From an uncultured Candidatus Saccharibacteria bacterium (lineage in GTDB: Bacteria; Patescibacteriota; Minisyncoccia; Phycocordibacterales; UBA9973): a stretch of DNA of 52,780 bases. Of this stretch, positions 1,069-52,757 are shown in pieces. The stretch is taken from contig CAYPQU010000001.1 of assembly GCA_964412965.1 (NCBI GenBank), positions 91,771 through 144,550 of the forward strand, in the 5' to 3' direction. Position numbers and translations under genes: made by a program. Below the pieces are notes generated by a model. That model ran no database searches. It saw only the letters and a program-made list of their open reading frames with translations, and was not told the DNA's origin. Position 1 is the stretch's first letter; each line of letters starts with the position of its first letter.

Positions 1069-1551
1069 CTACATTCTTACTTTTTTCTTATAGTCTAAAT
1101 AAATCTGACCATATTTTTCTTCTAGTGTTTCTTCTTCTTTTTTTACAAAAGTTAATTTAACTATGAGATACGTAATTAAAATAAGAAGAACAGAGAAAGT
1201 AGATCTTATCACGATTCCAAAACCTAAAACCATAAAAAATACTCCAAGATATGTTGGATGTCTAAAGTATTTATATGGACCATACATAAAACCTTCAACA
1301 CTACTATTTTCTGGTTTAATTTTACTTGCATTAAAAGAAGCTTTTTGAGCTAAATAAATTAGCAATGTTCCAAAAAAAATAATACCAGTACCTATATAAG
1401 AGTGCTCAAAATTAGCCAATAATTCCAATTTTAATATCTCATCAAGTAAAACACCAAGAATCATGGAAACAAAAAAAACAGCATACACATAAACAAGCAT
1501 TGCGTGTATTGTGTTTTTATTTCCATCTTTTTTGTTTAAAAAATTAACCAT
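1069..1551 (-). CDS. Isoprenylcysteine carboxyl methyltransferase (ICMT/PEMT) family membrane protein
   Basis: Four hydrophobic segments, GPYKYFRHPTYLG and EEETLEEKYGQIYLDYKKKV motifs. Confidence 0.85.
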   Translation of the reverse strand: MVNFLNKKDGNKNTIHAMLVYVYAVFFVSMILGVLLDEILKLELLANFEHSYIGTGIIFFGTLLIYLAQKASFNASKIKPENSSVEGFMYGPYKYFRHPTYLGVFFMVLGFGIVIRSTFSVLLILITYLIVKLTFVKKEEETLEEKYGQIYLDYKKKVRM

Positions 1552-1585
1552 AAATAAATAATATCACCTTGAAAAAAATTTGCTA

Positions 1586-4006
1586 CTATTTCAAGTCTCC
1601 CCAATTTTTACCAATCGAGACTGAAACAACTAGGGGAACATTTTCTTTGTCACCCAAAAACTCCTTAGGAATAATATTTTCTAATGATTTTTTAATTACA
1701 GAAGATACCTCTTTACAATATTCATCCTTCACTTCATAAATTAATTCATCATGAACTTGTAAAATAAGATCTGCTTTGTCTAATAGATTATTCCTGGAAA
1801 GAGTTTCTTCTGCCTTTTTCATTCCTATTTTTATGATATCCGCCGTTGCTGTACCTTGAATTGGAGCGTTAATGGCCATTCTTTCTGCCATTGCGCGAAT
1901 AAAAGGGATTGGAGATTTGATTGTCGGAAAGTATCTTTTTCTTCCAAATAAAGTTTCGGTATAGCCATGTTTTTTTGCGAAAATTTTTATACTTTCTAAA
2001 TATGATGCTATCTGAGGAAATTGCATAAAATAGTTGTCGTAGAAATTTTGGGCCTCTTGTCTTCCAACTTCTGCTTTTTGACCAGTCTCAAAATCTTCAG
2101 TTAAGAGATTTTGTCTAAGAGCATTAACCCCCATTCCATAAAGAATTCCAAAATTAATAATTTTCGCTCGTCTTCGCATTTCTTTTGTTAAACCATTTTC
2201 ATCTACGCCAAAAACCTTCATGGCGACAGCTTGATGAATATCTTTTCCTTCTTTAAATGATTTTATAAAATAAGAATCCTGAGATAAAAGAGCTGCTATT
2301 CTTAATTCGATTTGTGAATAATCAAAAGATACCAGAGAATGACCTTCCTTTGAGATAAAAGCATTTCGAATACTTTTGCCCCGCTCTGACCGGGTTGGAA
2401 TATTCTGGAGGTTAGGATTATTTGAAGCAAAACGCCCAGTAGTCGTCCCTGTTTGTATAAAACTAGCATGTAACCGCCCATCTTTACCAACTAAGGCAGG
2501 AATTGTGTCTATGTAAGTCGATAGAAGTTTTTGCAATTCTCTATGTTTTAATATTTCTCTAATTACAGGATGACTGTCAACAAGCTTCTCTAGCTCGCTC
2601 TCTCTGGTTGATATTGACCCTCCTGCACTTTTTTTAATACCTTTAGTAGAAATTCCTAATTTACCAAAAATTATTTCTCCAATTTGCTTAGGAGAATTAA
2701 TATTGAATTCTTGACCAACTAATTTAAAAATTCTATTTTCTATTTTTTTTAATTCTATGTGATACTCTTCGCTTATTTTTTTAAAATATTTTAAATCTAT
2801 CAATATTCCGTTTTTTTTCATTTTGTCTATTATTGGGATGATTGGAATTTCTATGTTTTGATAAACATACTCAAGTTTCTCTTTTTTTATGTCCTCTTCC
2901 AGCCTGATCATTGCCTCTTTGAAATTACGGCTTCCATTATAATGAACAATTTCGTCAATGTCAGGATTAGTCCTTTCTGAGTTTAGTAGCCAGTAAGCTA
3001 TTTTAGCTTTTTCTACTTCAGTCTTATCTTCTAAGTGATTTTCATCATTAGTCTCTTCTTTTTTATTATCAATTTCTCCGTCAAAAAGCTTCAAAAAACG
3101 CTCCTGCAAACTTCTAAATTCTAACTCTCTAAAAAGATTGGCAACTTTTTCTTTGTTTACTTCTTTAATCCAACTTTCTTTGGGAATATTAAATTTAATC
3201 GGAGCGTCTAACCTAATTGTAGCTAGCGTCTTTGAAAATAGGGCTTCATCTTCTCCTTCTTTTAAAAGACCAAGGATTCTTTCAGTTATTCCAATTTCTT
3301 TAAAATGTGATTCATTTTTTTTAATATTTTTATAAATATTTTCGATCGTTGAATATTTTGAAATTAAATTTGTCGCTGTTTTTTCTCCTATGCCTTTTAT
3401 CCCGATAATATTATCTGATGGGTCCCCCCTTAGTCCCTTGTAGTCAGGTAAAAAAGATGGGGCAAAACCAAATCTTTCAAAAACCTTTTTCTCGTCATAT
3501 AAAATTGTGTCATTTATACCCTTCTTTAGGGTGTAAACATAAACAAAGTCTTGTTTAATTAGTTGAAGAGTATCCATGTCTCCAGAAGCGATAATGATTT
3601 CATATTTGTCTTTCTGGTTCTTTAATTGTTCCGTGATTGTCCCCAGTAAATCATCGGCTTCAAATCCTTCACATTCATAAATTGGAATCGAGAATGTTCT
3701 AAAAAAATCTCTGGCTCGAGTAAGCTGAAAAATTAAAGCGTCATCTGCTTTGGCTCGTCCAGCTTTATAATTTTCATAAGCTTCATGTCGAAAAGTTTTT
3801 TTGGGTAAATCAAAACACGCGATCACATAATCTGGCTTTAGCTCTGTGATAATCTTGAATAACATTGTGGCCAAACCATAAATAGCACCGGTTGGCTCTC
3901 CTTGTGAATTATTAAAATCGGGCAATGCATGATAAGCACGGTGAATAATCGCATGAGAATCAAGCAGAATAATCTTTTTTTTGCTTTCAAGATTGGCTTT
4001 TGGCAT
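1586..4006 (-). CDS. polA: DNA polymerase I (5'-3' exonuclease plus polymerase; proofreading domain largely absent)
   Basis: LLDSHAIIHRAYHALP, EADDLLGT, GDPSDNIIG, TGRFASNNPNLQNIP, DYSQIELR, AKIINFGILYG, LQVHDEL. Confidence 0.97.
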   Translation of the reverse strand: MPKANLESKKKIILLDSHAIIHRAYHALPDFNNSQGEPTGAIYGLATMLFKIITELKPDYVIACFDLPKKTFRHEAYENYKAGRAKADDALIFQLTRARDFFRTFSIPIYECEGFEADDLLGTITEQLKNQKDKYEIIIASGDMDTLQLIKQDFVYVYTLKKGINDTILYDEKKVFERFGFAPSFLPDYKGLRGDPSDNIIGIKGIGEKTATNLISKYSTIENIYKNIKKNESHFKEIGITERILGLLKEGEDEALFSKTLATIRLDAPIKFNIPKESWIKEVNKEKVANLFRELEFRSLQERFLKLFDGEIDNKKEETNDENHLEDKTEVEKAKIAYWLLNSERTNPDIDEIVHYNGSRNFKEAMIRLEEDIKKEKLEYVYQNIEIPIIPIIDKMKKNGILIDLKYFKKISEEYHIELKKIENRIFKLVGQEFNINSPKQIGEIIFGKLGISTKGIKKSAGGSISTRESELEKLVDSHPVIREILKHRELQKLLSTYIDTIPALVGKDGRLHASFIQTGTTTGRFASNNPNLQNIPTRSERGKSIRNAFISKEGHSLVSFDYSQIELRIAALLSQDSYFIKSFKEGKDIHQAVAMKVFGVDENGLTKEMRRRAKIINFGILYGMGVNALRQNLLTEDFETGQKAEVGRQEAQNFYDNYFMQFPQIASYLESIKIFAKKHGYTETLFGRKRYFPTIKSPIPFIRAMAERMAINAPIQGTATADIIKIGMKKAEETLSRNNLLDKADLILQVHDELIYEVKDEYCKEVSSVIKKSLENIIPKEFLGDKENVPLVVSVSIGKNWGDLK

Positions 4007-4038
4007 ATAATAATTATATCACAAAAAAACCTTGTATT

Positions 4039-4485
4039 TTAATACTCAAAAATCCGAGTCTCTTCGTCTACGTGCTTTAAATAAATATAGTGAGTTTTTG
4101 AATCAAGACAATCTTTTACATTTTCAGGCCATTCAATAATGATAAGATTTTCTTTATTTTCATAAAGATTATTCCATCCAATTTTTTCTAATTCTTTATA
4201 CCCTTCTAACCTATAGGCATCTATGTGTACGAGTCTTTTTACTTCTTTAAGGACCTCGTTCTTAGGATTTGTTCTGTATATCTTCATAATCACAAAAGTA
4301 GGAGAAACAACTGAATTTTTTATACCTAGTTCTTTTGATATTTCTTGGGTCAATGTAGTCTTGCCTGCTCCAAGGCCTCCTGACATCGCAATAATTCTAG
4401 CCTTATCGGTTTTAATCTTTGAAATCTTCAAGAGCAATTCTTTTGCTACTTCATTAATATCAGATTTTTTAATTTTTCTTTTCAT
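4039..4485 (-). CDS. tsaE: tRNA threonylcarbamoyladenosine biosynthesis ATPase TsaE
   Basis: GGLGAGKTT, VVSPTFVIMKIY, HIDAYRL, IIEWPE. Start moved from 4503 to 4485 (MKRKIKK), which has an extended -10 just upstream. Confidence 0.93.
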   Translation of the reverse strand: MKRKIKKSDINEVAKELLLKISKIKTDKARIIAMSGGLGAGKTTLTQEISKELGIKNSVVSPTFVIMKIYRTNPKNEVLKEVKRLVHIDAYRLEGYKELEKIGWNNLYENKENLIIIEWPENVKDCLDSKTHYIYLKHVDEETRIFEY

Positions 4486-4500
4486 ACCTCTACATATTAA

Positions 4501-4526
4501 CATACCTCGACCAATGTCGAGGTGTG
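4501..4526. terminator. Hairpin/terminator downstream of the 921-aa gene
   Basis: CATACCTCGA-CCAATG-TCGAGGTGTG inverted repeat. Confidence 0.6.
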
Positions 4527-7435: not shown

Positions 7436-8137
7436 TTATAGTGGCGCTCCACCTGGACCACCACCTCCACCTAGGGGTGCACCACCTGGACCACCAGGGT
7501 TTGGTGGCGTAGTTGGTGCACCACCTGGACCACCGCTACTACCACCACTTGCAAGATAGTAAATTAGACCAGCTATGCTTACTCCGAGAGTTATTCCCCC
7601 AAATATTATCAAACCCGGGCTAATTTGTTTTTTAAATTTCTGGGGTTTAGGAACGATTTCTCTTGGTTCACTATTAATTTTTTCTTTGTAAACAATAATG
7701 GGTTTGGTTAAGAAAACAGTGTCCTTAACCTCTTTTTCAATAACCCTGTCTAGGATTTTCTCAACAACAATGACCCTTTTAACAGGACGGATATACTCTA
7801 TTTTGTTTCCACATTTAGCGGAATAAAAAACCCCGGATGAATCAGCATATACAATTTCTCCCTTAGGAAAAACTATGTAGTTGATATCCAGTCGATTGTG
7901 TTCCCCTTCAGCAAATCTTACATAGTACTCTTCTTCGAGTACATAAATATCATAACCTGAAGGACGATATCCGTAGTAAATGTCTCGGGCTTCTGGTCTT
8001 TTGGACCACATAGCTCCTTGTGTTATTTTCTCATATCCATCTGTGCGCACGACCCCATAAATTATTTCTTTATGAATTTGTGCAAAGACCTGAGTGCTCA
8101 CTATCGCAAGCAACACCAGAATAAAAAACTTTTTCAT
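7436..8137 (-). CDS. Hypothetical exported single-TM protein with Gly/Pro-rich cytoplasmic tail
   Basis: MKKFFILVLLAIVSTQVFA signal peptide (start 8137; ORF track start 8164), TM GLIIFGGITLGVSIAGLIYYL, three GGPGGAP repeats, own sigma70 promoter. Confidence 0.7.
   Translation of the reverse strand: MKKFFILVLLAIVSTQVFAQIHKEIIYGVVRTDGYEKITQGAMWSKRPEARDIYYGYRPSGYDIYVLEEEYYVRFAEGEHNRLDINYIVFPKGEIVYADSSGVFYSAKCGNKIEYIRPVKRVIVVEKILDRVIEKEVKDTVFLTKPIIVYKEKINSEPREIVPKPQKFKKQISPGLIIFGGITLGVSIAGLIYYLASGGSSGGPGGAPTTPPNPGGPGGAPLGGGGGPGGAPL
7476..7534. repeat. 20-bp identical direct repeats encoding GGPGGAP units
   Basis: GGTGCACCACCTGGACCACC at 7476 and 7515; a third degenerate copy near 7443. Confidence 0.85.
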
Positions 8138-8239
8138 TTTTTTGATTTTAATATTGTTATACACACCCCCAAAAAGGTTTGTTTTTATTCGTTTTTTAGG
8201 AGAATATACAACAACACTAAAATCAGACTATTTGCTTAA

Positions 8240-8268: not shown

Positions 8269-8337
8269 TACCTGTCAATACCTCTTTTGTCCTTATTTTA
8301 TTAGCTTTTATTAGGCCAATAATATATAATAAAACAT

Positions 8338-10038
8338 ATGGTTATATCATTTGACGATGAAAAACAGATAAAAGGTCTTGAGGATTTGAGAAAACAAGAA
8401 GAAGAAAATCTCATTGAGTTTATTGCTCAAGCTAAATACGGAATACCTCCTATCAATCTAGCTGGTATGACAATAGACAATGATGCTCTTAGAGCAATTA
8501 CCGAAAAAGAAGCAAGAGAATTTGGAATAGCTCCCTTTAAACTTGTTGGTAAAAATTTACACATAGCGATCAGGTCTCCCCAACCAGAAAAATTACAACA
8601 ACTAAGTGAGTACTTTGTCTCTAAAAAATATAACCCTTATTTTTATATGGCATCAATGGCCAGTCTTGAAAAAGTATGGGAAAGATACAAGGAATTGTCT
8701 TATGCTTCAGAATCTAAAATAGGAACTGTTACAATCACAGGTGAGGCTTTGCAAAAAATAATACCTGAAATTAAAAATGTAGACGATATCACCAGGCTCA
8801 TCAAAGAAGCAGAGAAAGAAAAAATCCGAACAACTTCAAAAATACTAGAAGTTGCAATTGCTGGAGCGATTGCAGTTAACGCATCCGACATACATTTTGA
8901 ACCAGAAGAAAAATTTGTTCGACTAAGATTTAGACTAGATGGAGTTCTTCAGCAATTAATGGAGATCTCCCCAGAAGTTCATAAATTCATCAATTCTCGA
9001 ATAAAACTTATTTCAGGATTAAAAATAACAACCAGTGAAGCAGCTCAAGATGGGCGATTTAGTTTCTTTTTTGGAGATGATGAAATTAATCTCCGTGTTT
9101 CTTTTATGCCAGGTGCGTACGGGGAATCAATAGTTTTACGTATTCTTAATCCAAAATCTATTAGGCATGAACTTGAAGAATTTGGAATAGAACAAAAACT
9201 GTACGATGTTTTTATGGATGAAATCAAAAAACCAAATGGTTTAATTCTTTTAACAGGTCCAACCGGTTCAGGTAAAACAACCACCTTGTATGCATTTTTA
9301 CAAAGAATTTATTCCAAGGAAATAAAAATAATTACAATTGAAGACCCTATCGAATATCACCTTCCTGGCATTTCGCAAACACAAGTCGATGAAGACAAGG
9401 GTTATACATTTTTCTCAGGATTAAGGTCAGCCCTTCGACAAGACCCAGATGTGATAATGGTAGGAGAAATTCGAGATCCAGACACAGCAAAAACAGCAGT
9501 TGAATCAGCATTAACAGGACACCTTGTTTTTTCTACCCTTCACACCAACAATGCTGCGGGAGTTATCCCAAGACTAATCGATCTGGATGTAAACTCAAAA
9601 ACTCTAGTTTCTGCGTTATCACTTTCTATTGCTCAAAGACTAGTTCGCAAGCTCTGTGATAATTGTAAAAAAGAAAAACCTTTCACCGATAAAGAAAAAA
9701 ATCTTGTCCTAGATATTTTAAATAAAGCCAAAAATAATGGTAAGGATATTGATAATTACGGAGTAGATATGGGTAAAGAATTTATTACCTATGAAGCAGT
9801 AGGCTGTGATAAGTGTAATCACACGGGGTATCATGGGCGAATAGGAATTTTTGAAGCCATTAAAACCGACGAGGAAATAGAAAAGATTATTCCACTAAAC
9901 CCTAGTGAAAGAGAAGTTAAAAAAATAGCCAACACTCAGGGAACATTAAATTTAAGAGAAGATGGGATAATAAAAGTCTTAAAAGGAATCACTTCTTTAG
10001 AAGAAGTAGCCAGTGTAGTAGATCTCGCTGAGGAGTAA
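8338..10038 (+). CDS. pilB: GspE/PilB family type IV pilus assembly ATPase
   Basis: ASDIHFEP, GPTGSGKTTT Walker A, TIEDPIEY, LRQDPDVIMVGEIRD, STLHTN, CDNC...CDKC zinc site. Confidence 0.9.
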   Translation: MVISFDDEKQIKGLEDLRKQEEENLIEFIAQAKYGIPPINLAGMTIDNDALRAITEKEAREFGIAPFKLVGKNLHIAIRSPQPEKLQQLSEYFVSKKYNPYFYMASMASLEKVWERYKELSYASESKIGTVTITGEALQKIIPEIKNVDDITRLIKEAEKEKIRTTSKILEVAIAGAIAVNASDIHFEPEEKFVRLRFRLDGVLQQLMEISPEVHKFINSRIKLISGLKITTSEAAQDGRFSFFFGDDEINLRVSFMPGAYGESIVLRILNPKSIRHELEEFGIEQKLYDVFMDEIKKPNGLILLTGPTGSGKTTTLYAFLQRIYSKEIKIITIEDPIEYHLPGISQTQVDEDKGYTFFSGLRSALRQDPDVIMVGEIRDPDTAKTAVESALTGHLVFSTLHTNNAAGVIPRLIDLDVNSKTLVSALSLSIAQRLVRKLCDNCKKEKPFTDKEKNLVLDILNKAKNNGKDIDNYGVDMGKEFITYEAVGCDKCNHTGYHGRIGIFEAIKTDEEIEKIIPLNPSEREVKKIANTQGTLNLREDGIIKVLKGITSLEEVASVVDLAEE

Positions 10039-12173: not shown

Positions 12174-13363
12174 GTAAAAGATATTTTTACAAACCTCTTC
12201 TTGCCTATTCGGTAAACTCCTTCAAAAACTTTCTGATTGTATTCAATAATTTTTTGATTTTCTCCTAAAAGAACAACAGCCCCACCATCTACTAACCGCC
12301 TAAAATCACTCTTGGAAGAAACTATTTTATTTAAAACCAAAACGTTAACAAGCGACTCATCTTTTTTTGTTGTTATTACTTCTACGTCATCAGGAATTTC
12401 TTTTTGTGAAAAAGTTCTTTGCCAACCTTTTTCAGCTAACTCACCTTTTTCTTGACCGTAAAAAGCAGAAACCACTTCCCTGGCTAATCTCATTTTATTT
12501 TCTTTAAAACAAGGATTGTCTCCCTTGAGCTCTTTTTGTATTTTTTCTATTTCTTCATCTTCAACATTTGTACAAAGCTCCAACGCAGACGGAATCATCT
12601 CGTCTGTCCAACTCATAACTTTTCCATACATATCATCTGGTGTGTCTGTAATTGTGACCATATTACCTTCTGTCTTACCCATCTTTTTTCCATTAGGATC
12701 TTCTAATAATTTCATTGTGATAACAAATTTTTCTTTGCCTTTCATGCTTTTCAACATATCCCTACCACAGAGCATGTTGAATGTTTGATCATTACCGCCA
12801 ATTTCTCCATCTACATTCATTGCCACTGAATCATAAGCTTGCATTAGTGGGTACATAAATTCGTGAATAAAAACAGGTTTACCTTCGTTCATTCTTTTTT
12901 TAAACATATCCCTTTCTAGCATTTGCTGAACTGTCATTTGTGAAGCCAAAGACAAAACTTCTTCAAACCTCATTTTTGAGTGCCATTTTGAATTAAATCT
13001 AAGTTCTGCTTTATTTTTTCCACTAAATGAAATTATTTTTGAGAGTTGTTTTTTGTATCCCTTTAAATTTTTTAAAACTTCTTTTTTAGTAAGTTGTTTT
13101 CTTGTTGCACTTTTATCTGTTGGATCACCTATCATGGCGGTAAAATCACCCAAAAGTAGTATTATTTTGTGTCCAGCTTTTTGAAATTCACTTAATTTTT
13201 TTACAGGAATAGCATGACCAAGGTGCAAACTAGGACCTGTTGGGTCAATTCCTAAATAAATAGTTAATTTTTCTCCTTTTTCCAGTCTTGATTTTAAATA
13301 TTCACGAGATGGATAAATAGAGGCCACCCCGCGATTTAGTATCTGTTCATTAATCTTATTCAT
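12170..13363 (-). CDS. tyrS: Tyrosine--tRNA ligase
   Basis: YLGIDPTGPSLHLGH (HIGH), YPLMQAYD, GGNDQTFN, KMGKT (KMSKS), C-terminal S4-like domain ending RIGKKRF. Confidence 0.97.
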   Translation of the reverse strand: MNKINEQILNRGVASIYPSREYLKSRLEKGEKLTIYLGIDPTGPSLHLGHAIPVKKLSEFQKAGHKIILLLGDFTAMIGDPTDKSATRKQLTKKEVLKNLKGYKKQLSKIISFSGKNKAELRFNSKWHSKMRFEEVLSLASQMTVQQMLERDMFKKRMNEGKPVFIHEFMYPLMQAYDSVAMNVDGEIGGNDQTFNMLCGRDMLKSMKGKEKFVITMKLLEDPNGKKMGKTEGNMVTITDTPDDMYGKVMSWTDEMIPSALELCTNVEDEEIEKIQKELKGDNPCFKENKMRLAREVVSAFYGQEKGELAEKGWQRTFSQKEIPDDVEVITTKKDESLVNVLVLNKIVSSKSDFRRLVDGGAVVLLGENQKIIEYNQKVFEGVYRIGKKRFVKISFT

Positions 13364-13482
13364 TGTTATATTTTAACACATTTACAACTTTTTAAGAATA
13401 TTATATGGTATTATACTAAATAGGATCATGTTCCCGTCCTGGAATTTAAATCCGCATTATTTTTATAAAAAACATTAAATTT

Positions 13483-16263: not shown

Positions 16264-17360
16264 TATCTGTTCATTGGCATAACGAGATACATAAAAGAAG
16301 TATCTCCTACCCCTCTTAAAATCATCGCCTTATTATTACCACTAAGTTCTAGGCTTAGACTATCAACAGAAACTGACTGTAAACAGTCTAATATATATTT
16401 AAAGTTAAAACTAGCGGAAACATCTTCTCCGGAAAAAGCTCCATCTATCTCTGTGTTATTTTCTCCAATGTCTGAATTTTTTGATTCGAAGTTAAATAAT
16501 TTTTCGTTAGGTTTTATTGTTATTTCTACTTGATTAAATTTATCAGAAAAAATATTTGATATTTTTAAAGAAGACAATAAATCTTGTTTTAAAATAATGG
16601 CTTTTGTTGTTGGGTTTTTAGGAATTATTTGTTTATAATCTGGAAAACTTCCATCCACAACCCTTGAGGTCAAATAAATATTATTTGTTGATAAAGATAT
16701 TTGGTTTTTTTGTAAATTTATAGTGATATCGTCATCAATATTTTCAAATATTCTTATTATTTCAACTGTATTTTTGAATGGTATTAAAATTCCATCAAAG
16801 TTTAATTTTTGTTTAATCTTTATTTTTTTCTCTGCCAATCTAAATGAGTCTGTTGAAACAAAAACCAACATATCATCTTCTGGATAAACATAAACACTGC
16901 CTATCTCTGGTTTAATCTCTGAAATTGAAGCGCTATAATAAACTGACTTTATTCCCTCTATAAACTTTTTATTTTGAAGAATTATTGATTCACCCTCAAC
17001 TGTTGGTATTGTTGGAAAATCTTCATGAGGAATACTTTTTAATAAAATAGTGCTTGTTTTTGTTTTAACTAAAAGATTACCATTAACTAATTCAAATGTA
17101 ACATTAAAATCTCCTTGTAAAATGGAAAACAAAGAAGAAAGAATATCTCCTCTTACGGCCACAGTACCTTCTTTTTCTATTTTTGCGGGGACTTCTATTT
17201 CTATACCTATATTTAAATTTGTCGCTCTTAATTTAAGAGTTTTTCCTGACGCTACCCACAAAACAGATCCCAAAACTGGTAGTGTTAGATTTTTACCAGT
17301 TACCCTTTCTACAGAGATTAGAGCATTTTTAATTTTATCAATTGAGCATTCTATTTTCAT
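16263..17360 (-). CDS. dnaN: DNA polymerase III beta sliding clamp
   Basis: LRATNLNIG, STDSFRL, SRVVDGSFPDYKQIIP, YLVMPM; immediately downstream of dnaA. Confidence 0.97.
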   Translation of the reverse strand: MKIECSIDKIKNALISVERVTGKNLTLPVLGSVLWVASGKTLKLRATNLNIGIEIEVPAKIEKEGTVAVRGDILSSLFSILQGDFNVTFELVNGNLLVKTKTSTILLKSIPHEDFPTIPTVEGESIILQNKKFIEGIKSVYYSASISEIKPEIGSVYVYPEDDMLVFVSTDSFRLAEKKIKIKQKLNFDGILIPFKNTVEIIRIFENIDDDITINLQKNQISLSTNNIYLTSRVVDGSFPDYKQIIPKNPTTKAIILKQDLLSSLKISNIFSDKFNQVEITIKPNEKLFNFESKNSDIGENNTEIDGAFSGEDVSASFNFKYILDCLQSVSVDSLSLELSGNNKAMILRGVGDTSFMYLVMPMNR

Positions 17361-17587
17361 ATAAGTTATTAGATTAATTAGTATCTATTTTATATATTAT
17401 AAATTATTATTAATACTATGAGTGTGGATATGTGGATTAGTTGATTTATTGTTTTAAAATAAGATTGAAAATAATTTTTTTTATTTAATATCTCTTTTAA
17501 AAATGTTTATTAATTTTATAAAAACATATTAGCTGATAATTTTCCACTTTCTATTTCCACAATAGTCACACCTTATCCACAGCTTTA
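17361..17587. other. Replication origin oriC (dnaA-dnaN intergenic part)
   Basis: Perfect TTATCCACA at 17573-17581; near-consensus boxes at 17423-17431, 17431-17439, 17540-17548 and 17553-17561; AT-rich unwinding region with seven NAN trinucleotides at 17402-17422. Confidence 0.85.
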
Positions 17588-19070: not shown

Positions 19071-19099
19071 TTGCAATGTTTCCAAATATGTTATATATT
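19071..19099 (+). promoter_or_regulatory. rpmH operon promoter (leaderless geometry)
   Basis: TTGCAA-17 nt-TATATT, then 6 nt to the ATG. Confidence 0.6.
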
Positions 19100-19105
19100 C
19101 TTGGT

Positions 19106-19246
19106 ATGTCGCAAACATATCAACCAAACAGAAGAAAAAGAGCAAAAACTCACGGATTCTTAGTTCGAACCAAAACGAAAGATGGCAGAAAGATTAATAC
19201 TGCCCGACGTCGTAAGGGTAGAACCAATGTTTCAGTAAAAAAGTAA
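19106..19246 (+). CDS. rpmH: 50S ribosomal protein L34 (not in ORF track, 46 aa)
   Basis: Manual translation [46 protein letters not shown]; canonical position before rnpA. Confidence 0.96.
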
Positions 19247-19773: not shown

Positions 19774-19805
19774 GACACAAAATTCATTTTGAATTTTGTG
19801 TCTTA
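19771..19805. terminator. Perfect 16-bp-stem hairpin between yidD and yidC
   Basis: TAAGACACAAAATTCA-TTT-TGAATTTTGTGTCTTA. Confidence 0.55.
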
Positions 19806-19824
19806 TGATATACAATGACTAGAT

Positions 19825-20574
19825 ATGATTAATCTATGGAATACTTTTTTATACGAACCAATTTATAATGCCCTTATTTTTATTATAAACAACGTTACTT
19901 TTGGAGATGTTGGTTTTGCTATCGTAATTGTTACAATCCTTGTTAAGGTTATTCTTTTCCCCTTAACTAAAAAATCAGCTCGTAGTCAAATCTTAATGAA
20001 AAAGATGGAGCCTGAAATAAAAAAGATAAAGCAAGATTATCCCAATAAAGAAGAGCAAGCCAAAAAAACCCTGGAACTCTATAAAAAGTACGGGACAAAT
20101 CCTTTCTCTGGTTGCCTTGTTGTCCTTTTGCAAATGCCGGTCATTTTTGCACTGTACTATGTCTTTTATGAAGGGCTAAAGATTGATGAAAGCCTTATAT
20201 ATTCATTTATCCAAATTCCTACGACACTCTCAACAAACTTTTTAGGTATTTTTGAATTGGGAGAAAAAAGCTTGTTTTTGGGTGTTTTAACTGGTTTAAG
20301 CCAGTTTATACAAGGATATTTAGCTTCACCTGTTAAAAATAAACAGATAGAAATTATAAAGGACAACGATTCGGTAAAAGACAAAAAGGCTGATTTTCAA
20401 GAACAGTTGTCCGATAGCATGCAAATGAATGTAAAATACATACTACCTGTATTTATTGGTTTTATCGCCTGGAAAATATCTGCTGCTGTGGCTTTATACT
20501 GGACAGTAAGCAACATTTTTACTATTCTACAAGAGTGGTATATAAGAAGAAAATTATCTAAAAATGTAATATAA
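19825..20574 (+). CDS. yidC: YidC/Oxa1 membrane protein insertase (short form)
   Basis: FAIVIVTILVKVILFPL, MKKMEPEIKKI, NPFSGCLVVLLQMPV, ALYWTVSNIFTILQ. Confidence 0.95.
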   Translation: MINLWNTFLYEPIYNALIFIINNVTFGDVGFAIVIVTILVKVILFPLTKKSARSQILMKKMEPEIKKIKQDYPNKEEQAKKTLELYKKYGTNPFSGCLVVLLQMPVIFALYYVFYEGLKIDESLIYSFIQIPTTLSTNFLGIFELGEKSLFLGVLTGLSQFIQGYLASPVKNKQIEIIKDNDSVKDKKADFQEQLSDSMQMNVKYILPVFIGFIAWKISAAVALYWTVSNIFTILQEWYIRRKLSKNVI

Positions 20575-20581
20575 TTAATTT

Positions 20582-27502: not shown

Positions 27503-27566
27503 AATGTTTATGTAATTTATTCAATGTTACAAATTAATTGTAGCATTTTTAAGATATAAAAACAGC

Positions 27567-27974: not shown

Positions 27975-27978
27975 ATTT

Positions 27979-31887: not shown

Positions 31888-31893
31888 AATTTT

Positions 31894-31902
31894 ATTATAA
31901 CA
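31894..31902 (-). promoter_or_regulatory. Internal extended -10 promoter of the VirB6-like gene
   Basis: TGTTATAAT, 6 nt before the GTG; a TTTCGCGAAA palindrome lies just upstream. Confidence 0.55.
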
Positions 31903-38029: not shown

Positions 38030-38821
38030 CTACAAGTTAACCTGCTTCGCAATGTCGACCCAGTTTTGAGCTGTTAAATTTTCAGCTCGAGAATTTTTAT
38101 TTATTTCTAATTTGTTAAAAATTCTTTCAAGTTCATCTTTTTGCTTAAATGTTTTAGTTAAATTACTTAAGACTAGTTTACGTTTATGGGCAAAACCCGC
38201 TTTAAGTATTTCAAAGAATTTTTTTTCTGAGATATTGCCATTAAAGGTATTTTTTGAGATATCGGATATTAAAATAACAGCCGAATCTACCTTGGGAGAC
38301 GGGGAAAAGAATTTTTTGCCAACAGTCGTTATGTATTTGGGTAATCCGTAAATCTTTACGCTGATAGACAAAATACTTTCCTTTTTGTTTCTCGCGACAA
38401 TTCTTTCGGCTACTTCTTTTTGAACTAACAGTACCATTTTTTCGGGTTGCTTTTCTTCTTCTAAAAATTTTTTAAAAATTGCACCAGTAATATTGTATGG
38501 GATATTGGCTATCAGTTTATATTTTTTTATGTTTTTGGGAATACTAAAATCTAAAATATCTTGATTTAACAAGATAAATTGACCTGTTTTGGTTTCATTA
38601 GTGAATTTTTCTTGCAAAAACGGTATGAGTGAATCATCTTTTTCTATTGCAATGACTTGAACCCCTCTTTCTAGAAGTTTTTCAGTAAGAGCCCCCTTGC
38701 CTGGCCCTATTTCCAAAACAATATCTCTTGAAGATAGTTCACCTGCTTCACATATTCGAGCCAAAATCTTTTTTGATTTTAGAAAATTTTGCCCGAGAGA
38801 TTTTTTGGCTTTATGTTCCAT
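38030..38821 (-). CDS. rsmA: 16S rRNA m6,6A dimethyltransferase RsmA/KsgA
   Basis: AKKSLGQNFL, LEIGPGKGALT, IANIPYNITG, FSPSPKVDSAV, RAENLT. Confidence 0.97.
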   Translation of the reverse strand: MEHKAKKSLGQNFLKSKKILARICEAGELSSRDIVLEIGPGKGALTEKLLERGVQVIAIEKDDSLIPFLQEKFTNETKTGQFILLNQDILDFSIPKNIKKYKLIANIPYNITGAIFKKFLEEEKQPEKMVLLVQKEVAERIVARNKKESILSISVKIYGLPKYITTVGKKFFSPSPKVDSAVILISDISKNTFNGNISEKKFFEILKAGFAHKRKLVLSNLTKTFKQKDELERIFNKLEINKNSRAENLTAQNWVDIAKQVNL

Positions 38822-38858
38822 TTTTTTATTTTATCACTGAACTATATTTATATAAAGT

Positions 38859-40781
38859 TTATAAATAGACAATTCTTTCCCCACTAATACTGTGAGCCTG
38901 TTCAAATGAAGTTAGCCTTGATGGAATGTCATAGATAAATTCACTTGGAGAATTAACTTGCTTCATCCCAAAGATTGTTCTTAGAGAAGTATAGGTTAAA
39001 AATAATTTTTCTCGAGCTCTGGTGACTGCAACATAGAAAAGACGCCTCTCTTCCTCTTTATCCTCTTTTGTTTTTGAGCCATCTTTGGTGTGGGGGAAAA
39101 GGTCTTGCTCTAATCCGGCTATAAAAACATATTTAAATTCCAACCCCTTTGAAGCATGGACTGTCATTAACCTGACACCTTTACTTTTATGAAGAAGGGT
39201 ATCTTGGTCTGAAGACAAAACGGCATCTTCCAAAAGTTTTTCAACTCCATTTTCTTGATTGTCATACTTGAGGGATAGTGTTACTAACTCCATAATATTT
39301 TCTAGTCTTTCTAAATCGTCGCTTGAACCATTTTCTAACTCTGACTTAATTCCGGTTTTTTCAATAATAAATTTAATAATTTCAGATGGTTTGTTTTTTT
39401 CTGAAAATTCAAAAATATCTTTAAGGGTTTTGTAGAAAAGATTAATTTTATCCTGAGTTTTTTTAGGTAACTCTTCTTGTTGTCCGGCAAATAATTTTGC
39501 AATAGTGACTTTTCCCAATCCTCGAGTGGGGAAATTAATTATTCTTTTGATGTCAGAAAGATTGTCTTGATTATAAGCAGCTCTAAGATAAGCCAGAACA
39601 TCTTTTATTTCCTTTCTTTCAAAAAATTTTGTTCCAAGCACTTGATATGGTATTTGTCTTTGTAAAAAAGCTTCTTCTAAAACACGAGATTGAAAATTTG
39701 CTCTGTATAAAACCGCGATTTCTTCTGGGTCCACGTCTCTTAAGAGTTCATCAATTTTGCCTGCTATATAAGATCCCTCTGTTTGTTCGTCAAAAGATTC
39801 ACAAATAGTAATCGTCTCCCCCTCCTTGTTTTCGGTAAATAAGTTTTTAGGAACTCTATATTGATTTTTTTCGATAATTGAATTAGCTGCTTCGATTATG
39901 GTTTTTGTTGAACGATAATTTTGTTCGAGCATTACAATTTTTGCACTTGGAAAATCTTTTTCAAAGTGAAGCATGTTTTTAATATTAGCTCCGCGCCAAC
40001 TATAAATATTTTGGTCTGTATCACCAACAACACAAATATTCTCATCTTTGCCAACGAGTAATTTAGTAAGTTCGTATTGAACTTCATTGGTATCTTGGTA
40101 TTCATCTATGTGAATATATTGCCAACGATTTTGATATTTATGTTTTATTTCTGGATATTTTTTTAGAATCAAAACAGCTTCGAGTAAAAGATCATCAAAA
40201 TCCAAAGATTTTTCTTTTCTGTTTCTGGCTTCGTACTCACGCCAAATTCTGGCCACCATGTCTTGGAAGTGCCCGTTCGAATTTACACCAAATGTTTCTA
40301 CTGTAACAAAATCCCCTTTTGCTCTAGAGATAATAGATTTTATTTTTTTAGGTTCATTTTCTTTAGGATCAATATCAAAATCTTTCATGATGCTTTTAAT
40401 GTTAGATATAGCATCCCCCTCATCAAGAATAGAAAAATGTTTATTTAATCCTATGAGATGAGCATTTTCTTTTATAATATAAACGCCAAGAGAATGAAAT
40501 GTGGATATAAAAGGAATTTCGTTTTTAAAAGTCAAATCAAACCCATGTTCTTTTTCTTCAATCATTTTGAAAACTCTTTCCCTCATTTCTTTTGCGGCTT
40601 TATTTGTAAAGGTTATAGCTAAAATATTTTCAGGATTAATGCCCTCGTGTATTAAGTGCATTATCCTGGAAGTAATAGTTTTTGTTTTTCCTGCCCCTGC
40701 CCCAGCTACTATCAAAAGAGGTCCCTTGGTGTATAAAACAGCTTCTTTTTGTTGGTTGTTTAATGATTCCAGATAATCCAT
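38859..40781 (-). CDS. pcrA: UvrD/PcrA family DNA helicase
   Basis: AGAGAGKTKT, IDEYQDTN, VGDTDQNIYSWRGA, LEQNYRST, MTVHASKGLEF, EEERRLFYVAVTRA; lacks C-terminal Tudor-like extension. Confidence 0.95.
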   Translation of the reverse strand: MDYLESLNNQQKEAVLYTKGPLLIVAGAGAGKTKTITSRIMHLIHEGINPENILAITFTNKAAKEMRERVFKMIEEKEHGFDLTFKNEIPFISTFHSLGVYIIKENAHLIGLNKHFSILDEGDAISNIKSIMKDFDIDPKENEPKKIKSIISRAKGDFVTVETFGVNSNGHFQDMVARIWREYEARNRKEKSLDFDDLLLEAVLILKKYPEIKHKYQNRWQYIHIDEYQDTNEVQYELTKLLVGKDENICVVGDTDQNIYSWRGANIKNMLHFEKDFPSAKIVMLEQNYRSTKTIIEAANSIIEKNQYRVPKNLFTENKEGETITICESFDEQTEGSYIAGKIDELLRDVDPEEIAVLYRANFQSRVLEEAFLQRQIPYQVLGTKFFERKEIKDVLAYLRAAYNQDNLSDIKRIINFPTRGLGKVTIAKLFAGQQEELPKKTQDKINLFYKTLKDIFEFSEKNKPSEIIKFIIEKTGIKSELENGSSDDLERLENIMELVTLSLKYDNQENGVEKLLEDAVLSSDQDTLLHKSKGVRLMTVHASKGLEFKYVFIAGLEQDLFPHTKDGSKTKEDKEEERRLFYVAVTRAREKLFLTYTSLRTIFGMKQVNSPSEFIYDIPSRLTSFEQAHSISGERIVYL

Positions 40782-40811
40782 AGGTTTTTATTATATTCGG
40801 AAATGAGATAA

Positions 40812-47284: not shown

Positions 47285-48181
47285 TTATTTAGGATTTTTG
47301 ATTAAAATTGCATTTATTATTCTTTTTAAGACTTCGGAGTTTTCAGTAATAACTAGAGTGTTTTTATTAACAAAAGAATAAAAAAGAACTCCTTCTCCGT
47401 CTATCCCATACAAGACTCTGGCGTCTTTATTATTAACAATAATATCCTTCCAGTCTTTCTCGAATAATGCTGTGTCAGAGTCAGAAAGTGTTATGTCAAA
47501 AAGAATAAATAAATCAGAGAAGATAGATTTTTCCCAATCAAGCATTGATGCATACGCTAGGTTGTAGTCGTTAATTCCAAAAATAAGAAAACCCGTTGAT
47601 CCATTCACGGCAGAATCGCCTTTATATTTTCCAAAAAGGAAATCATTGTTCATTGATCTAATTAGAGACCCAGGTGCCGTAGATTTCAAGATTGCAAGAA
47701 ACTCATCTTTTGTTAGGTGTCGCTCTTCCTCATTATTTTCTTTTTTGTTTATAAAGACGGCATTAGCCCCGTTCTTTTCCTCGGATTTTACAGAATGAAT
47801 AATTCCAACAAGATTCATTAGGCCGCTCACTTTTGTGGCGTCTATTTTGATAGCGTTGTCGTAACTAATGAATGTCTCAATTCTAGGTTCATGGCGAATT
47901 ATATTACTCTCGCGTATCTTTTTCTGGTTTATAAAATAATAAGCCCCGTAAGCTGATCCAGCAATTAACATTATTCCGCCTAAGAAGAACATGATTTTAG
48001 AAAATACCGAATTGCCTGACTTGGCAAGGGCTTCTTGTTGCTCTCGCCTCTCTTTTTCGGCCATAGCAATTTTAATCACGGAAATTTGATTCTCTCGTAC
48101 GGCTTCAGCCATATCAGAAGAAAAAGTTCTGATTGTTTTTAGGTTAGACCCTTTCTTTTGTTGTTCATTCTTTTCTTCCAT
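47285..48181 (-). CDS. Hypothetical single-TM protein
   Basis: IRTFSSDMAEAV N-terminus, TM at ~63-82, soluble C-terminal domain; function not recognised. Confidence 0.65.
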   Translation of the reverse strand: MEEKNEQQKKGSNLKTIRTFSSDMAEAVRENQISVIKIAMAEKERREQQEALAKSGNSVFSKIMFFLGGIMLIAGSAYGAYYFINQKKIRESNIIRHEPRIETFISYDNAIKIDATKVSGLMNLVGIIHSVKSEEKNGANAVFINKKENNEEERHLTKDEFLAILKSTAPGSLIRSMNNDFLFGKYKGDSAVNGSTGFLIFGINDYNLAYASMLDWEKSIFSDLFILFDITLSDSDTALFEKDWKDIIVNNKDARVLYGIDGEGVLFYSFVNKNTLVITENSEVLKRIINAILIKNPK

Positions 48182-48208
48182 GAAATAAATTTTATTTTTT
48201 AGAGAATA

Positions 48209-50493: not shown

Positions 50494-50526
50494 AAAAACA
50501 CCCCGACTTTTGGTCGGGGTGTTTTT
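50494..50526. terminator. Terminator after the NYN gene (AAAACACCCCGAC family)
   Basis: 14-bp perfect stem; differs from the 10041-10070 copy by one loop base. Confidence 0.85.
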
Positions 50527-51031: not shown

Positions 51032-51108
51032 AAAAAAATTTCCTATTATTAAAAAACTCGACCACAATATTAATGATACTACTTTTTAAAACAATAATAT
51101 AGATTAAA

Positions 51109-51143
51109 AACAAAAACCCTCGGACAAGCCGAAGGTTTTTGTT
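51109..51143. terminator. Terminator after rpsO
   Basis: AACAAAAACCCTCGG-ACAAG-CCGAAGGTTTTTGTT. Confidence 0.75.
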
Positions 51144-51402
51144 ATGATTTGATTTTTCTGGTTTCTTCTAAGAATTTCTCTTTATCTTTCTTTTCGATAG
51201 ATTTCAAGTGTGTTCTTCGATCAGCAACCATTTTTATCAATCCACGGCGAGAGTGGTTGTCTTTTTTGTGGACCTTTAAATGATCTGCAAGTTCATCTAT
51301 CTTTTTACTTAAGATAGCAATTTGAACCTCAGGACTACCGGTGTCTTTGTCGTGTCTTTGGCTTTTCTTGATAACATTTTGTTTTTTCTTTGTTGTTAAC
51401 AT
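51142..51402 (-). CDS. rpsO: 30S ribosomal protein S15
   Basis: [28 protein letters not shown]; start at MLTTKKK. Confidence 0.96.
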
Positions 51403-51585
51403 TGCTCCAAAATAGTAGCATAAAATCACTAAAAAAGCAAATCAGGACAAATGCTTGTGGCCCTTGTGAAAAAATTAGCTTAGTATATAATAATATTATA
51501 CCTATTTATTAGGGATCGTTTGCAAACGGTCGAGTATTATATTAATTAGCATTTGTGTTTGTAAAAAAAATACAAAACTAAAATA

Positions 51586-51858: not shown

Positions 51859-51880
51859 TTGTTAAACAACAATTGCTTTT

Positions 51881-51914
51881 AAAAAAGCCATCCATTCTAT
51901 CTGGATGGTTTTTT
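51881..51914. terminator. Bidirectional terminator between hup and the ZIP transporter
   Basis: AAAAAAGCCATCCA...TGGATGGTTTTTT. Confidence 0.75.
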
Positions 51915-51930
51915 GTTTTTTAATTTAAGA

Positions 51931-52680
51931 TTAATGAGCTCCTGCTAAGAGAATCATCGCGGCTACGCCGATGCCAATAAAAAATAGAGGCATAACAGAC
52001 TTTCGCGTTTTTGAATCTTTGTGAAGTATCGGTATTAAATCAGCGACGGCAACATATATGAACCCTCCTGCTGCTATGGGCATAAGCCAAAGCGCAAATC
52101 CTTCGGTGGTCGATCCGAAAATTATGGCCACTATTGTTCCTAAGAGTGCCGCGCTGGCAGAAATAAAATTGTAAAGAAGGGCTTTTTTCTTTGAAAAACC
52201 AGAATGAATTAAAACAGCAAAATCCCCTATCTCCTGAGGTATTTCATGAAGGACTACCGCAATGGTGGTTGCGACACCAAGAGGAATGCTGACGATAAAG
52301 CTTGCACCGATAATTATACCATCAATAAAATTATGAAACCCGTCGGTCAAAAGAATCATTCTTCCGGCTGGGTGAATTTCTGAATGTTCGCAATCTTCGC
52401 CGTGATGGTGCCAATGGATAAATTTTTCGATAATAAAAAATATAAGGATACCACCAATAATTAAAAGACTAACAATATGTTCATCTAAGCCACTTTCAAA
52501 TGATTCGGGGATGATGTGGACAAAAGCTCCACCCAAGAGAGCTCCGATAGCAAGACCGATAAAACACCCAATATATTTTTTAAGAATATTTTCTTTGACA
52601 GCCAAAGATATAATTCCGATAAAAGAAACGAGGCCAACAATGGCCACACTTAGAATTGCGTATAAATAATTTGTAATCAT
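51931..52680 (-). CDS. ZIP family divalent metal (zinc) transporter
   Basis: GGAFVHIIPES, HWHHHGEDCEH loop, DGFHNFIDG, HEIPQEIGDF, AAGGFIYVA. Confidence 0.93.
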   Translation of the reverse strand: MITNYLYAILSVAIVGLVSFIGIISLAVKENILKKYIGCFIGLAIGALLGGAFVHIIPESFESGLDEHIVSLLIIGGILIFFIIEKFIHWHHHGEDCEHSEIHPAGRMILLTDGFHNFIDGIIIGASFIVSIPLGVATTIAVVLHEIPQEIGDFAVLIHSGFSKKKALLYNFISASAALLGTIVAIIFGSTTEGFALWLMPIAAGGFIYVAVADLIPILHKDSKTRKSVMPLFFIGIGVAAMILLAGAH

Positions 52681-52757
52681 TCTTTTATTATAGCAAAGCT
52701 GTCAAGATAAAAAAATTGTTTTTATTAAAAAATATGCTAATATATAGTGGTTATCAT

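Follow-up and report, generated by a model that had tools for sequence, protein, structure and literature searches.

Promoters abutting start codons point to leaderless, Shine-Dalgarno-independent initiation in a Paceibacteria clade

In the stretch of 52,780 nucleotides analysed here, referred to as the window, a -10 promoter hexamer is repeatedly found only 6-9 nt before the start codon, and the same arrangement recurs in related species. The best explanation, to which we assign a probability of about 0.85, is that the housekeeping promoter directly abuts the coding sequence and that initiation in this Paceibacteria clade is leaderless and independent of Shine-Dalgarno (SD) sequences. Leaderless initiation had been proposed as a dominant mode by a sequence-only reading of the window. 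The geometry is indeed the commonest promoter arrangement in the window and in 80 related species, with "dominant" to be read as about 40-55% of transcription units.

Start-proximal promoters in the window and in related species

The 13 sites listed in the sequence-only reading are all present as described and at the right coordinates, and two clear and two weaker sites were added to them (Table 1). The 34-nt intergenic gap of the ICMT-like gene corresponds to about one promoter length, and the 233-aa hypothetical protein has the length given by an independent gene call. The site before jag could reflect chance or else mark a weak promoter internal to the operon's coding sequence. At yidC, pcrA, tsaE and rpsO the spacer between hexamer and start codon is 8-9 nt, and their mRNAs may carry leaders of 1-3 nt rather than being strictly leaderless. 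The window also holds two leadered counter-examples, and the leadered arrangement of dnaN is kept in relatives.

Table 1. Start-proximal -10 sites, leadered counter-examples and the rpsO terminator in the window
Feature	Position	Strand	Arrangement	Remark
ICMT-like gene	1549..1566	-	TGATATTAT, 6 nt, ATG	start 1551
polA	4004..4021	-	TGATATAAT, 6 nt, ATG	start 4006
tsaE	4483..4502	-	TGTTAATAT, 8 nt, ATG	start 4485 (4503 in one pipeline)
233-aa hypothetical protein	8135..8150	-	TAAAAT, 7 nt, ATG	start 8137; clear site, newly listed
pilB	8325..8340	+	TATAAT, 7 nt, ATG	start 8338
tyrS	13361..13378	-	TGTTAAAAT, 6 nt, ATG	start 13363
dnaN	17358..17405	-	TATAAT about 35 nt upstream, A/T-rich leader	leadered counter-example, no SD
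rpmH	19071..19108	+	TTGCAA (-35), 17 nt, TATATT, 6 nt, ATG	start 19106
yidC	19789..19827	+	TTGAAT, 16 nt, TACAAT, 8 nt, ATG	start 19825
jag	20570..20584	+	TATAAT, 6 nt, ATG	start 20582; within 3' end of yidC
221-aa gene	27500..27550	-	TGCTACAAT, 34 nt, ATG	leadered counter-example, no SD
PrgI-like gene	27972..27986	-	TAATAT, 6 nt, ATG	start 27974; weak candidate within 3' end of upstream gene
"VirB6-like" gene (972 aa, polytopic)	31885..31902	-	TGTTATAAT, 6 nt, GTG	start 31887
rsmA/ksgA	38819..38836	-	TGATAAAAT, 6 nt, ATG	start 38821
pcrA/uvrD	40779..40795	-	TATAAT, 8 nt, ATG	start 40781
Further weak site		-	TATTTT, 6 nt	start 46763; newly listed
298-aa hypothetical protein	48179..48194	-	TAAAAT, 7 nt, ATG	start 48181; clear site, newly listed
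Terminator directly 3' of rpsO	51109..51143	-	intrinsic terminator	
rpsO	51400..51440	-	TTGCTT, 17 nt, TGCTACTAT, 9 nt, ATG	start 51402
ZIP transporter	52678..52695	-	TGCTATAAT, 6 nt, ATG	start 52680

The enrichment of TANNNT over a shuffled null, which the sequence-only reading had put forward as a check, takes the form of a sharp peak at spacer 6 that stands above background in both the window and the 80 loci. With window starts set mechanically as the first ATG of open reading frames of at least 100 aa (n=39), TANNNT lies at spacer 6 in 9/39 frames, compared with a mean of 1.65 and a highest count of 7 among 5000 dinucleotide shuffles (binomial P = 2.5e-5), and at spacers 6-8 in 15/39 (shuffle mean 4.9, with 0/5000 shuffles as high). 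A scan that is independent of gene calls likewise peaks at spacer 6. The excess is weaker in an automated "first gene" subset of the window alone (36% vs 23-27%); several true cases have gaps of less than 40 nt, short genes or non-first starts.

The window belongs to an ultrasmall bacterium of the Patescibacteria (CPR), class Paceibacteria, from the neighbourhood of "Nomurabacteria/Moranbacteria". DnaA hits carry the names Moranbacteria or Paceibacterota, and the comparison set comprises genome loci of 80 related species, 1.4 Mb in all, with titles that refer to Nomurabacteria, Paceibacteria or Patescibacteria. Among about 1100 genes, TANNNT is found at spacer 6 in 19-21%; the figure is 3-4% for offsets 31-60 and 1-2% upstream of internal ATGs. 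For the 614 operon-first genes of the 80 loci, strong -10 motifs number 98, 48, 41 and 22 at spacers 6, 7, 8 and 9, with no more than 9 at each remaining offset in the range 0-69; the background-corrected excess amounts to 0.42 of first genes. The most enriched intergenic gaps are those of 25-59 nt, close to the length of one promoter.

It might be argued that such hexamers are simply a by-product of AT-richness, as TANNNT is common in intergenic DNA of 27-35% GC and has, in the regions preceding genes, a background of about 4% per position, or 16-25% in an interval of 5 nt. Neither the shuffles nor the absence of a peak at spacers 0-5 and 10-69 agrees with this view, and the same pipeline applied to an AT-richer control that uses SD sequences, Staphylococcus phage K (29% GC), gave no peak, with 0/53 hexamers at spacers 3-7. 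The sites are, moreover, kept in orthologues. This explanation is thus very improbable, being refuted for the ensemble and possible only for individual weak sites, such as the TATTTT of the comM-like gene and the sites of jag and the PrgI-like gene, any of which could be chance.

The start-proximal hexamers have the features of sigma-70/sigma-A promoters, namely a TATAAT-like -10 in which A2 and T6 are invariant, an optional TGn and a -35 TTG at 16-19 nt. The hexamer occurring most often is TATAAT, and a TRTG "-16" pattern can be made out; 30.5% of the start-proximal hexamers have a TGn in front of them vs 4.8% of control hexamers, and a -35 TTG accompanies 23.5% vs 5.5%. These features bear on a second explanation, that the hexamer is an mRNA element, a non-SD ribosome- or S1-binding signal on leadered transcripts like the A-rich signals of the Bacteroidetes, "group B" of GeneMarkS-2. 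Such an element would suit the A/U-rich, G-poor regions upstream of all genes and the modest spacer-6 excess of TANNNT before operon-internal genes (12% vs about 4%), and the clade resembles group B in making no use of SD sequences and in its A-rich, G-poor upstream sequence. However, the extended -10 and -35 elements are meaningless in an mRNA, and the modal spacer of 6 is the canonical distance from a -10 to a transcription start. A gap of a single promoter length also speaks against it. A ribosome-binding site is expected before first and internal genes alike, as is the case for the group B motif on its leadered transcripts, whereas strong motifs at spacers 6-9 precede 43% of divergent genes and 40% of those at 25-79-nt gaps, and are fourfold rarer (10%) before operon-internal genes (gap below 25 nt). 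The motif of this clade behaves as a promoter, depleted before internal genes, and the mRNA-element explanation is unlikely, if the strongest of the competing accounts.

Conservation and the choice of start codons

The -10 sites are kept at orthologous rpmH, yidC, tyrS, pilB, dnaA and rpsO despite drift in the sequence of the spacer. TANNNT is found at spacer 5-9 in 76/80 orthologues of rpmH (95%), 73/73 of yidC (100%, mostly at spacer 6), 39/44 of tyrS (89%), 24/28 of pilB (86%) and 82% of those of dnaA; at rpmH, TTGCA-17-TATATAT is conserved and the spacer is variable. The corresponding values are 10% for rnpA and 7% for an 88-aa gene, both of them operon-internal, and the jag site is not conserved (18/68 orthologues, 26%).

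A third explanation accepts the promoters as real and holds that the annotated starts are wrong, with translation beginning at a downstream codon behind an ordinary leader. A few genes are in fact ambiguous (tsaE, 4485 or 4503; the "VirB6-like" gene, GTG at 31887 or ATG at 31845), and public gene callers differ on some starts in the clade. Several observations nevertheless make it a distinctly unlikely account. Pfam models align from residues 1-3 of L34, RsmA, DnaN and HU: residues 1-44 of the rpmH product match L34 model positions 1-44, and the RrnaAD match to RsmA begins at residue 3, model position 2. Orthologue N-termini lie at shift 0 relative to the proposed starts, and the downstream codons have neither an SD sequence nor another signal. 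The start choices of the sequence-only reading are further backed by the 86-aa length of S15 in most relatives and by the sole tsaE orthologue examined (in locus L026), whose alignment favours the start at 4485 and whose own arrangement is TGTTAAAAT, 6 nt and ATG. Finally, the codon that follows a strong -10 at spacer 6 is ATG in 150 cases, GTG in 16, and TTG and CTG in one each. This preference for ATG and GTG fits the need for a 5'-terminal start codon, and the GTG start of the "VirB6-like" gene is in line with it.

Absence of Shine-Dalgarno signals and the case of rpsO

No gene class was found to have an SD-led initiation signal, in the sense of a purine-rich core above background. The cores AGGA, GGAG and GAGG occur at spacings of 4-12 in 0.6-3.9% of genes vs 2.7-11.7% at control offsets, and hence lie below background, whereas phage K, analysed with the same script, showed a pronounced SD peak at spacings of 5-11. 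It had been stated that none of the 13 original sites has an SD motif, which needs a small correction: tsaE has GAGG 1 nt and rpsO GGAG 2 nt from the ATG. Both are too close to the ATG to be functional SD sequences, and the GGAG of rpsO is not conserved. Neither the window nor the related loci contain a 16S gene, and scans of sequence collections gave unrelated rRNAs only.

In rpsO, the promoter and its 9-nt spacer are conserved in three species (loci L089, L099 and L109) as TTGC-17-TGnTA(C/G)TAT, and a search for an S15 leader gave no Rfam match, whether the gathering score or E <= 10 was used as the cut-off. With the terminator that follows the gene, rpsO would be transcribed alone, on an mRNA that is nearly all coding sequence. 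Together, these features leave no room for a classical S15 operator in a 5' untranslated region, and the earlier claim that such an autoregulatory leader is ruled out is supported. The window has another promoter-like site, TTTACA-18-TATAAT, some 134 nt upstream of rpsO, in a region that is not conserved in relatives. Among the sparse Logan contigs of metatranscriptomes, which carry no read starts, a low-depth "RNA?" contig of a related strain (51325-51516) crosses the rpsO promoter, and could represent DNA or read-through. The gene itself is the same as in E. coli, and the order rpsO...pnp is kept, with a gene for an NYN-domain protein inserted between the two; unlike the E. coli type, the rpsO of the window has no leader and has its own terminator.

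Proposed mechanism and relation to known systems

In the layout of these transcription units, a -35 TTG is followed at about 17 nt by TAnnnT, which may carry a TRTGn extension; the start codon comes 6 nt or, less commonly, 7-9 nt later. RNA polymerase with sigma-70/sigma-A would start about 7 nt past the -10 hexamer, from which we infer that the transcript begins at, or 0-3 nt before, the AUG (occasionally GUG). The 5'-terminal start codon would then presumably be bound by the 70S ribosome, or by the 30S subunit with initiator tRNA, in the absence of SD pairing. Downstream genes of operons, which have neither promoter nor SD sequence, are most likely translated by termination-reinitiation at very short junctions; these are typically TAA-T-ATG, with U at -1 in an A/U-rich, G-poor context. 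Leaders of about 10-35 nt, A/U-rich and likewise lacking SD sequences, precede a minority of the first genes.

The archaeon Haloferax volcanii is dominated by leaderless transcripts, with most first genes leaderless and SD sequences playing a minor part. The clade resembles archaea of this type in its predicted leaderless first genes and the small role of SD sequences. In archaea, however, the TATA/BRE promoter is placed some 26 nt upstream, and both the polymerase and the initiation factors are unlike those of this clade.

Among bacteria, the leaderless "group C" genomes of GeneMarkS-2 are defined by a Pribnow box that precedes gene starts by 6-8 nt and include Actinobacteria such as Mycobacterium tuberculosis as well as Deinococcus-Thermus, in which 25-50% of operons are predicted to be leaderless (PMC6028130). 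The clade shares with this group the Pribnow box 6-8 nt before first genes, the predicted 5' AUG or GUG and the depletion of the motif before operon-internal genes (10% vs 40-43%). It differs in that the leadered and internal genes of group C use SD sequences, whereas SD cores are below background throughout this clade, and in that this genome is AT-rich, with promoters that have Firmicute-like TRTGn extensions.

Leaderless expression is of a known kind, and we found no description of it for this lineage in the literature. The loss of the anti-SD sequence has already been published for Parcubacteria, which belong to the same broad lineage: no more than 48% of them had a detectable motif (Tsurumaki et al. 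2022, RNA 28:1041; PMC9297842), in a study that did not address the mode of initiation or mention leaderless mRNAs. That about half of the Parcubacteria have lost CCTCCT (PMC9297842) predicts SD-independent initiation, and the SD depletion described here agrees with that prediction. As judged from promoter geometry, the analysis supports leaderless initiation at the fraction of transcription units given above, which would correspond to roughly one-third of all genes; the remaining genes are operon-internal and coupled, or leadered, and they too lack SD sequences.

Geometry of start-proximal -10 hexamers

The sequence-only reading described 13 genes in which a -10 hexamer lies a few nucleotides before the start codon, and took leaderless initiation to be a dominant mode. 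All 13 sites were re-read as it had given them. The less obvious start choices also stand: residue 1 of L34 aligns to model position 1, S15 is 86 aa long in the great majority of relatives, in agreement with the chosen rpsO start, and the sole available tsaE orthologue aligns to the start at 4485 and has TGTTAAAAT, 6 nt and ATG. Two further clear sites and two weak ones were added (table).

ORFs of at least 100 aa were called mechanically and their first ATG taken, a procedure that avoids picking starts to suit the leaderless idea. With these starts, TANNNT occurs at a spacer (the distance between hexamer and start codon) of exactly 6 nt in 9 of the 39 window genes and at spacers of 6-8 in 15; when these upstream regions are shuffled with dinucleotides preserved, the mean counts are 1.65 and 4.9, respectively. 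The observed counts were reached in none of 5000 shuffles (binomial P about 2e-5). A scan independent of gene calls, which collected all TGnTAnnnT and TATAAT matches ahead of an ATG that opens an ORF of at least 60 aa, likewise has its maximum at spacer 6; 10 of the 13 sites are among its matches. The other three are missed because the hexamers of rpmH (TATATT) and yidC (TACAAT) match neither of its motifs and because the VirB6-like gene starts with GTG.

The window has a GC content of 27-36% and holds around 44 genes, including dnaA-dnaN, rpmH-rnpA-yidC-jag, polA, tyrS, pilB, ruvBC, rsmA, pcrA and rpsO-NYN-pnp; no tRNA or Rfam match was found in its 52.8 kb. Its DnaA is 80-98% identical to proteins of MAGs labelled Candidatus Moranbacteria or Paceibacterota. 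For comparison, one genome per GTDB species was scanned, which gave 80 dnaA loci (62-94% identity; 1.4 Mb, ~1100 genes) titled Nomurabacteria, Paceibacteria, Paceibacterota or Patescibacteria. The DnaA matches and these titles place the host, as judged by sequence, in the class Paceibacteria (Parcubacteria) of the CPR/Patescibacteria. Window DNA is contained in wastewater metagenomes at 99% word share, exact-protein look-ups for sequence beyond the window returned only short contigs internal to it, and RNA runs with window sequence hold sparse, isolated assembled contigs of low depth. The window also encodes a type IV secretion-like cluster (table), for which a bioRxiv preprint (10.1101/2025.01.22.634366) that reportedly treats Patescibacteria type IV secretion offers a comparison case.

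Across the related loci, TANNNT stands at spacer 6 in 19-21% of the ~1100 genes; at offsets 31-60 the share is 3-4%, and ahead of internal ATGs it is 1-2%. When the stricter motif (TGnTAnnnT, TATAAT or TACAAT) was applied to 614 genes that are first in their transcription unit, the counts at spacers 6, 7, 8 and 9 were 98, 48, 41 and 22, with at most 9 at any remaining offset in 0-69; spacers 6-9 thus account for more than half of the strong -10 motifs that lie within 70 nt of first genes. After background correction, 0.42 of first genes have this geometry, a share that is similar between DnaA-identity bins and between GC bins from 25% to 40%. A second promoter class was considered for a bump at spacer 11 in the TANNNT profile and was rejected, the bump being largely the TRTGn extension, TATGnT, 5 nt upstream of a spacer-6 hexamer.

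Features of the window, with coordinates on the whole stretch
Feature	Position	Strand	Details
Added site, clear	8137	-	TAAAAT, 7-nt spacer
Added site, clear	48181	-	TAAAAT, 7-nt spacer
Added site, weak	27974	-	
Added site, weak	46763	-	
Stop-T-ATG junction	1067/1069		
Stop-T-ATG junction	19246/19248		
Stop-T-ATG junction	23961/23963		
ruvB upstream region	10230-10302	+	
dnaN upstream region	17358-17405	-	
221-aa gene	27502		
rpsO-NYN-pnp	48209-51402	-	
rpsO intrinsic terminator	51109-51143		3' of stop codon
HU RNA contig	51572-51889	+	run X32, ~97% identity
HU terminator	51882-51914		
Type IV secretion-like cluster	21074-37070	-	includes peptidoglycan-binding and VanY-type hydrolases, CARDB-domain and 1014-aa proteins
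TraG/VirB4-like P-loop ATPase of cluster	25000-26832	-	
PrgI-family protein of cluster	27567-27974	-	
972-aa polytopic protein of cluster	28969-31887	-	

Promoter character of the hexamers and the case of rpsO

Four lines of sequence evidence, namely promoter features, gene context, conservation in orthologues and the codon that follows, identify the start-proximal hexamers as predicted promoters. TGn directly precedes 30.5% of them, against 4.8% of hexamers lying 22-33 nt upstream, and a TTG at 16-19 nt accompanies 23.5% against 5.5%. TATAAT and TACAAT predominate, and a T-R-T-G pattern resembles the '-16 region' of Gram-positive promoters. A start-proximal -10 is found in 43% of divergently transcribed genes and in 40% of genes after a gap of 25-79 nt, but in just 10% of genes that follow their predecessor by less than 25 nt; enrichment is strongest at gaps of 35-59 nt, about the length of one promoter.

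In orthologues the hexamer is conserved while the sequence of the 6-nt spacer drifts. It is present in 76 of 80 rpmH orthologues, where a TTGCA -35 is conserved too, and in those of yidC (73/73), tyrS (39/44), dnaA (64/78) and pilB (24/28), whereas operon-internal genes mostly lack it (rnpA, 7/72; the 88-aa gene after dnaN, 4/57). The dnaA genes of the window and of one relative (L001) no longer have the TATAAT close to the start that is found in 82% of relatives. Where a long ORF opens 6 nt after a strong -10, the codon is ATG in 150 cases, GTG in 16, and TTG and CTG in one each, the preference expected of a 5'-terminal start codon; it lends support to GTG as the start codon of the VirB6-like gene. 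Chance, misannotated starts and a motif acting at the mRNA level were weighed as explanations and rejected for the ensemble.

The rpsO gene has a longer spacer than the mode. Its layout in the window (TTGCTT, 17 nt, TGCTACTAT, 9 nt, ATG) is that of three relatives (L089, L099 and L109), in which TTGCA or TTGCG is followed after ~17 nt by TG-n-TAGTAT or TACTAT and then by exactly 9 nt and ATG. A spacer of 9 lies within the observed distribution (22 cases) and would give a leader no longer than 2-3 nt. No Rfam S15-leader match was obtained at rpsO, even at E <= 10. The sequence-only reading had reasoned that a classical S15 operator in a 5'-UTR would be ruled out here, and the conserved 9-nt-spaced promoter, the lack of an Rfam match and the terminator 3' of the gene together exclude it; regulation through structure within the coding region is possible. 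A further promoter-like match, TTTACA-18-TATAAT, lies ~134 nt upstream in a region that is not conserved in relatives. A gene for an NYN-domain protein, a predicted RNase, follows rpsO in the three relatives and separates it from pnp in the window and in L109, the only one of the three in which pnp was seen beyond it.

Shine-Dalgarno disuse and downstream genes

The claim that SD motifs are absent from the 13 sites holds in that none stands at a functional distance; SD-like tetramers do occur at tsaE (GAGG, 1 nt from ATG) and rpsO (GGAG, 2 nt, not conserved in relatives). Both are too near the start to act as SD sequences and would fall at or before the transcription start. At spacings of 4-12, a core (AGGA, GGAG or GAGG) precedes 3.9% of operon-internal genes; among first genes the share is 0.6% where a proximal -10 is present and 2.4% where it is not, and each value falls short of the frequency at control offsets. 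When 50 kb of Staphylococcus phage K, an SD-using genome of 29% GC, was put through the identical script, SD cores peaked strongly at spacings 5-11, and none of 53 genes had TANNNT at spacers 3-7.

No 16S rRNA is present in the window or the 80 related loci. A scan of viral contigs for the 16S 3' end gave seven matches, all unrelated, and a scan of metagenome contigs for helix 45 followed by a non-CC sequence gave mostly eukaryotic 18S and mitochondrial rRNA, with none linkable to Paceibacteria. Two contigs unrelated to the window (L171 and L179) are mitochondrial-like, with ATP synthase, NADH dehydrogenase, COX1, TatC, RNase P RNA and many tRNAs, and carry bacterial-type SSU rRNA 3' ends without CCTCC.

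Operon-internal genes start at very short junctions, the commonest of which is TAA-T-ATG (TAATATG, gap +1; 62/309), unlike the ATGA or TAATG overlaps typical of bacteria. A T occupies position -1 at 72-80% of operon-internal starts, against 35% before internal Met codons, and the sequence upstream is A-rich with 2-7% G. These genes probably start by termination-reinitiation, for which the -1 T junction may provide the context; extended pairing with A37 of the initiator tRNA is a speculative addition.

Some first genes are leadered and also lack an SD. Upstream of dnaN, at ~35 nt, a TATAAT with an AT-rich stretch (TATAATAGTAATAATAAAT-like) after it is conserved across relatives, and the 221-aa gene has TGCTACAAT 34 nt upstream. 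In most of 58 ruvB orthologues a conserved (A)GTATAGCATA ends 12 nt short of the ATG; it exceeds a -10 hexamer in length and could be an operator, in DNA-damage control for instance. The window ruvB also has TGCTATAAT and a GGAAGCGAACTTCC hairpin ~56 nt upstream. One thin metatranscriptome contig of low depth covers the HU gene alone, beginning 14 nt upstream of the ATG and ending within the terminator, which hints at a short-leadered monocistronic mRNA. HU is not of the leaderless type, because in the window its TAAAAT is just 1 nt from the ATG.

A proposed leaderless model for Paceibacteria

Transcription starts ~7 nt downstream of the -10 hexamer, and translation of leaderless mRNAs proceeds from a 5'-terminal AUG with neither an SD nor protein S1. 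With the modal spacer of 6, the predicted +1 would fall on the A of the ATG. The spacer peak, promoter features, conservation, codon preference and SD disuse are shown by the sequences and support leaderless initiation as a dominant mode; the transcription start sites and the ribosomal route are inferred from them. Leaderless first genes alongside complete disuse of SD would, on this evidence, be an unusual combination. In 'group C' of GeneMarkS-2, mainly Actinobacteria and Deinococcus-Thermus, 25-50% of operons are leaderless, and Paceibacteria share the defining -10/start geometry of that group (PMC6028130), but differ in that no gene class in their loci uses SD. For Parcubacteria, Tsurumaki et al. 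2022 report a detected anti-SD motif in just 48% and propose that SD helices are not formed; leaderless mRNAs are not discussed there (PMC9297842). Our incomplete coverage of the full-text literature yielded no description of leaderless initiation in CPR, Patescibacteria, Parcubacteria, Paceibacteria, Nomurabacteria or Saccharibacteria.

Public gene calls are too long at S15 (124-133 aa in several relatives' records, P0124-P0127 and P0129, against 86 aa) and at TsaE (154 aa against 148 aa; L112, 5600-6064), with the tsaE start called at 4503. Such over-extension is the error expected when a gene finder seeks a ribosome-binding site that does not exist. A leaderless model is advisable for gene finders on Paceibacteria genomes, and the NCBI pipeline may already model such starts implicitly. 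For expression constructs in newly tractable Patescibacteria, the design rule is a -35, TGnTATAAT, 6 nt and ATG, with no ribosome-binding site. Regulation through 5'-UTRs, by riboswitches or ribosomal-protein leaders such as that of S15, is largely closed to leaderless genes.

The CPR/Patescibacteria account for a large part of bacterial diversity, are nearly all uncultured and have stripped-down ribosomes; loss of uL1 and bS21, besides the anti-SD, is reported for Parcubacteria. The sequence-level evidence that promoters lie directly against start codons and that SD goes unused provides the class with a model of gene expression that is concrete and can be tested. The broadest reading, to which we give a probability of roughly 0.4, is that Paceibacteria do wholly without SD/anti-SD pairing and have only two, SD-independent routes: a 5'-terminal AUG on leaderless mRNAs for virtually all promoter-proximal genes whose promoter can be recognised, and stop-U-AUG reinitiation with a -1 U for downstream genes. 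If this is true, a large class with reduced ribosomes would be closer to leaderless archaea than to textbook bacteria, and the loss of the anti-SD, uL1 and bS21 would be a consequence or an enabler of the arrangement.
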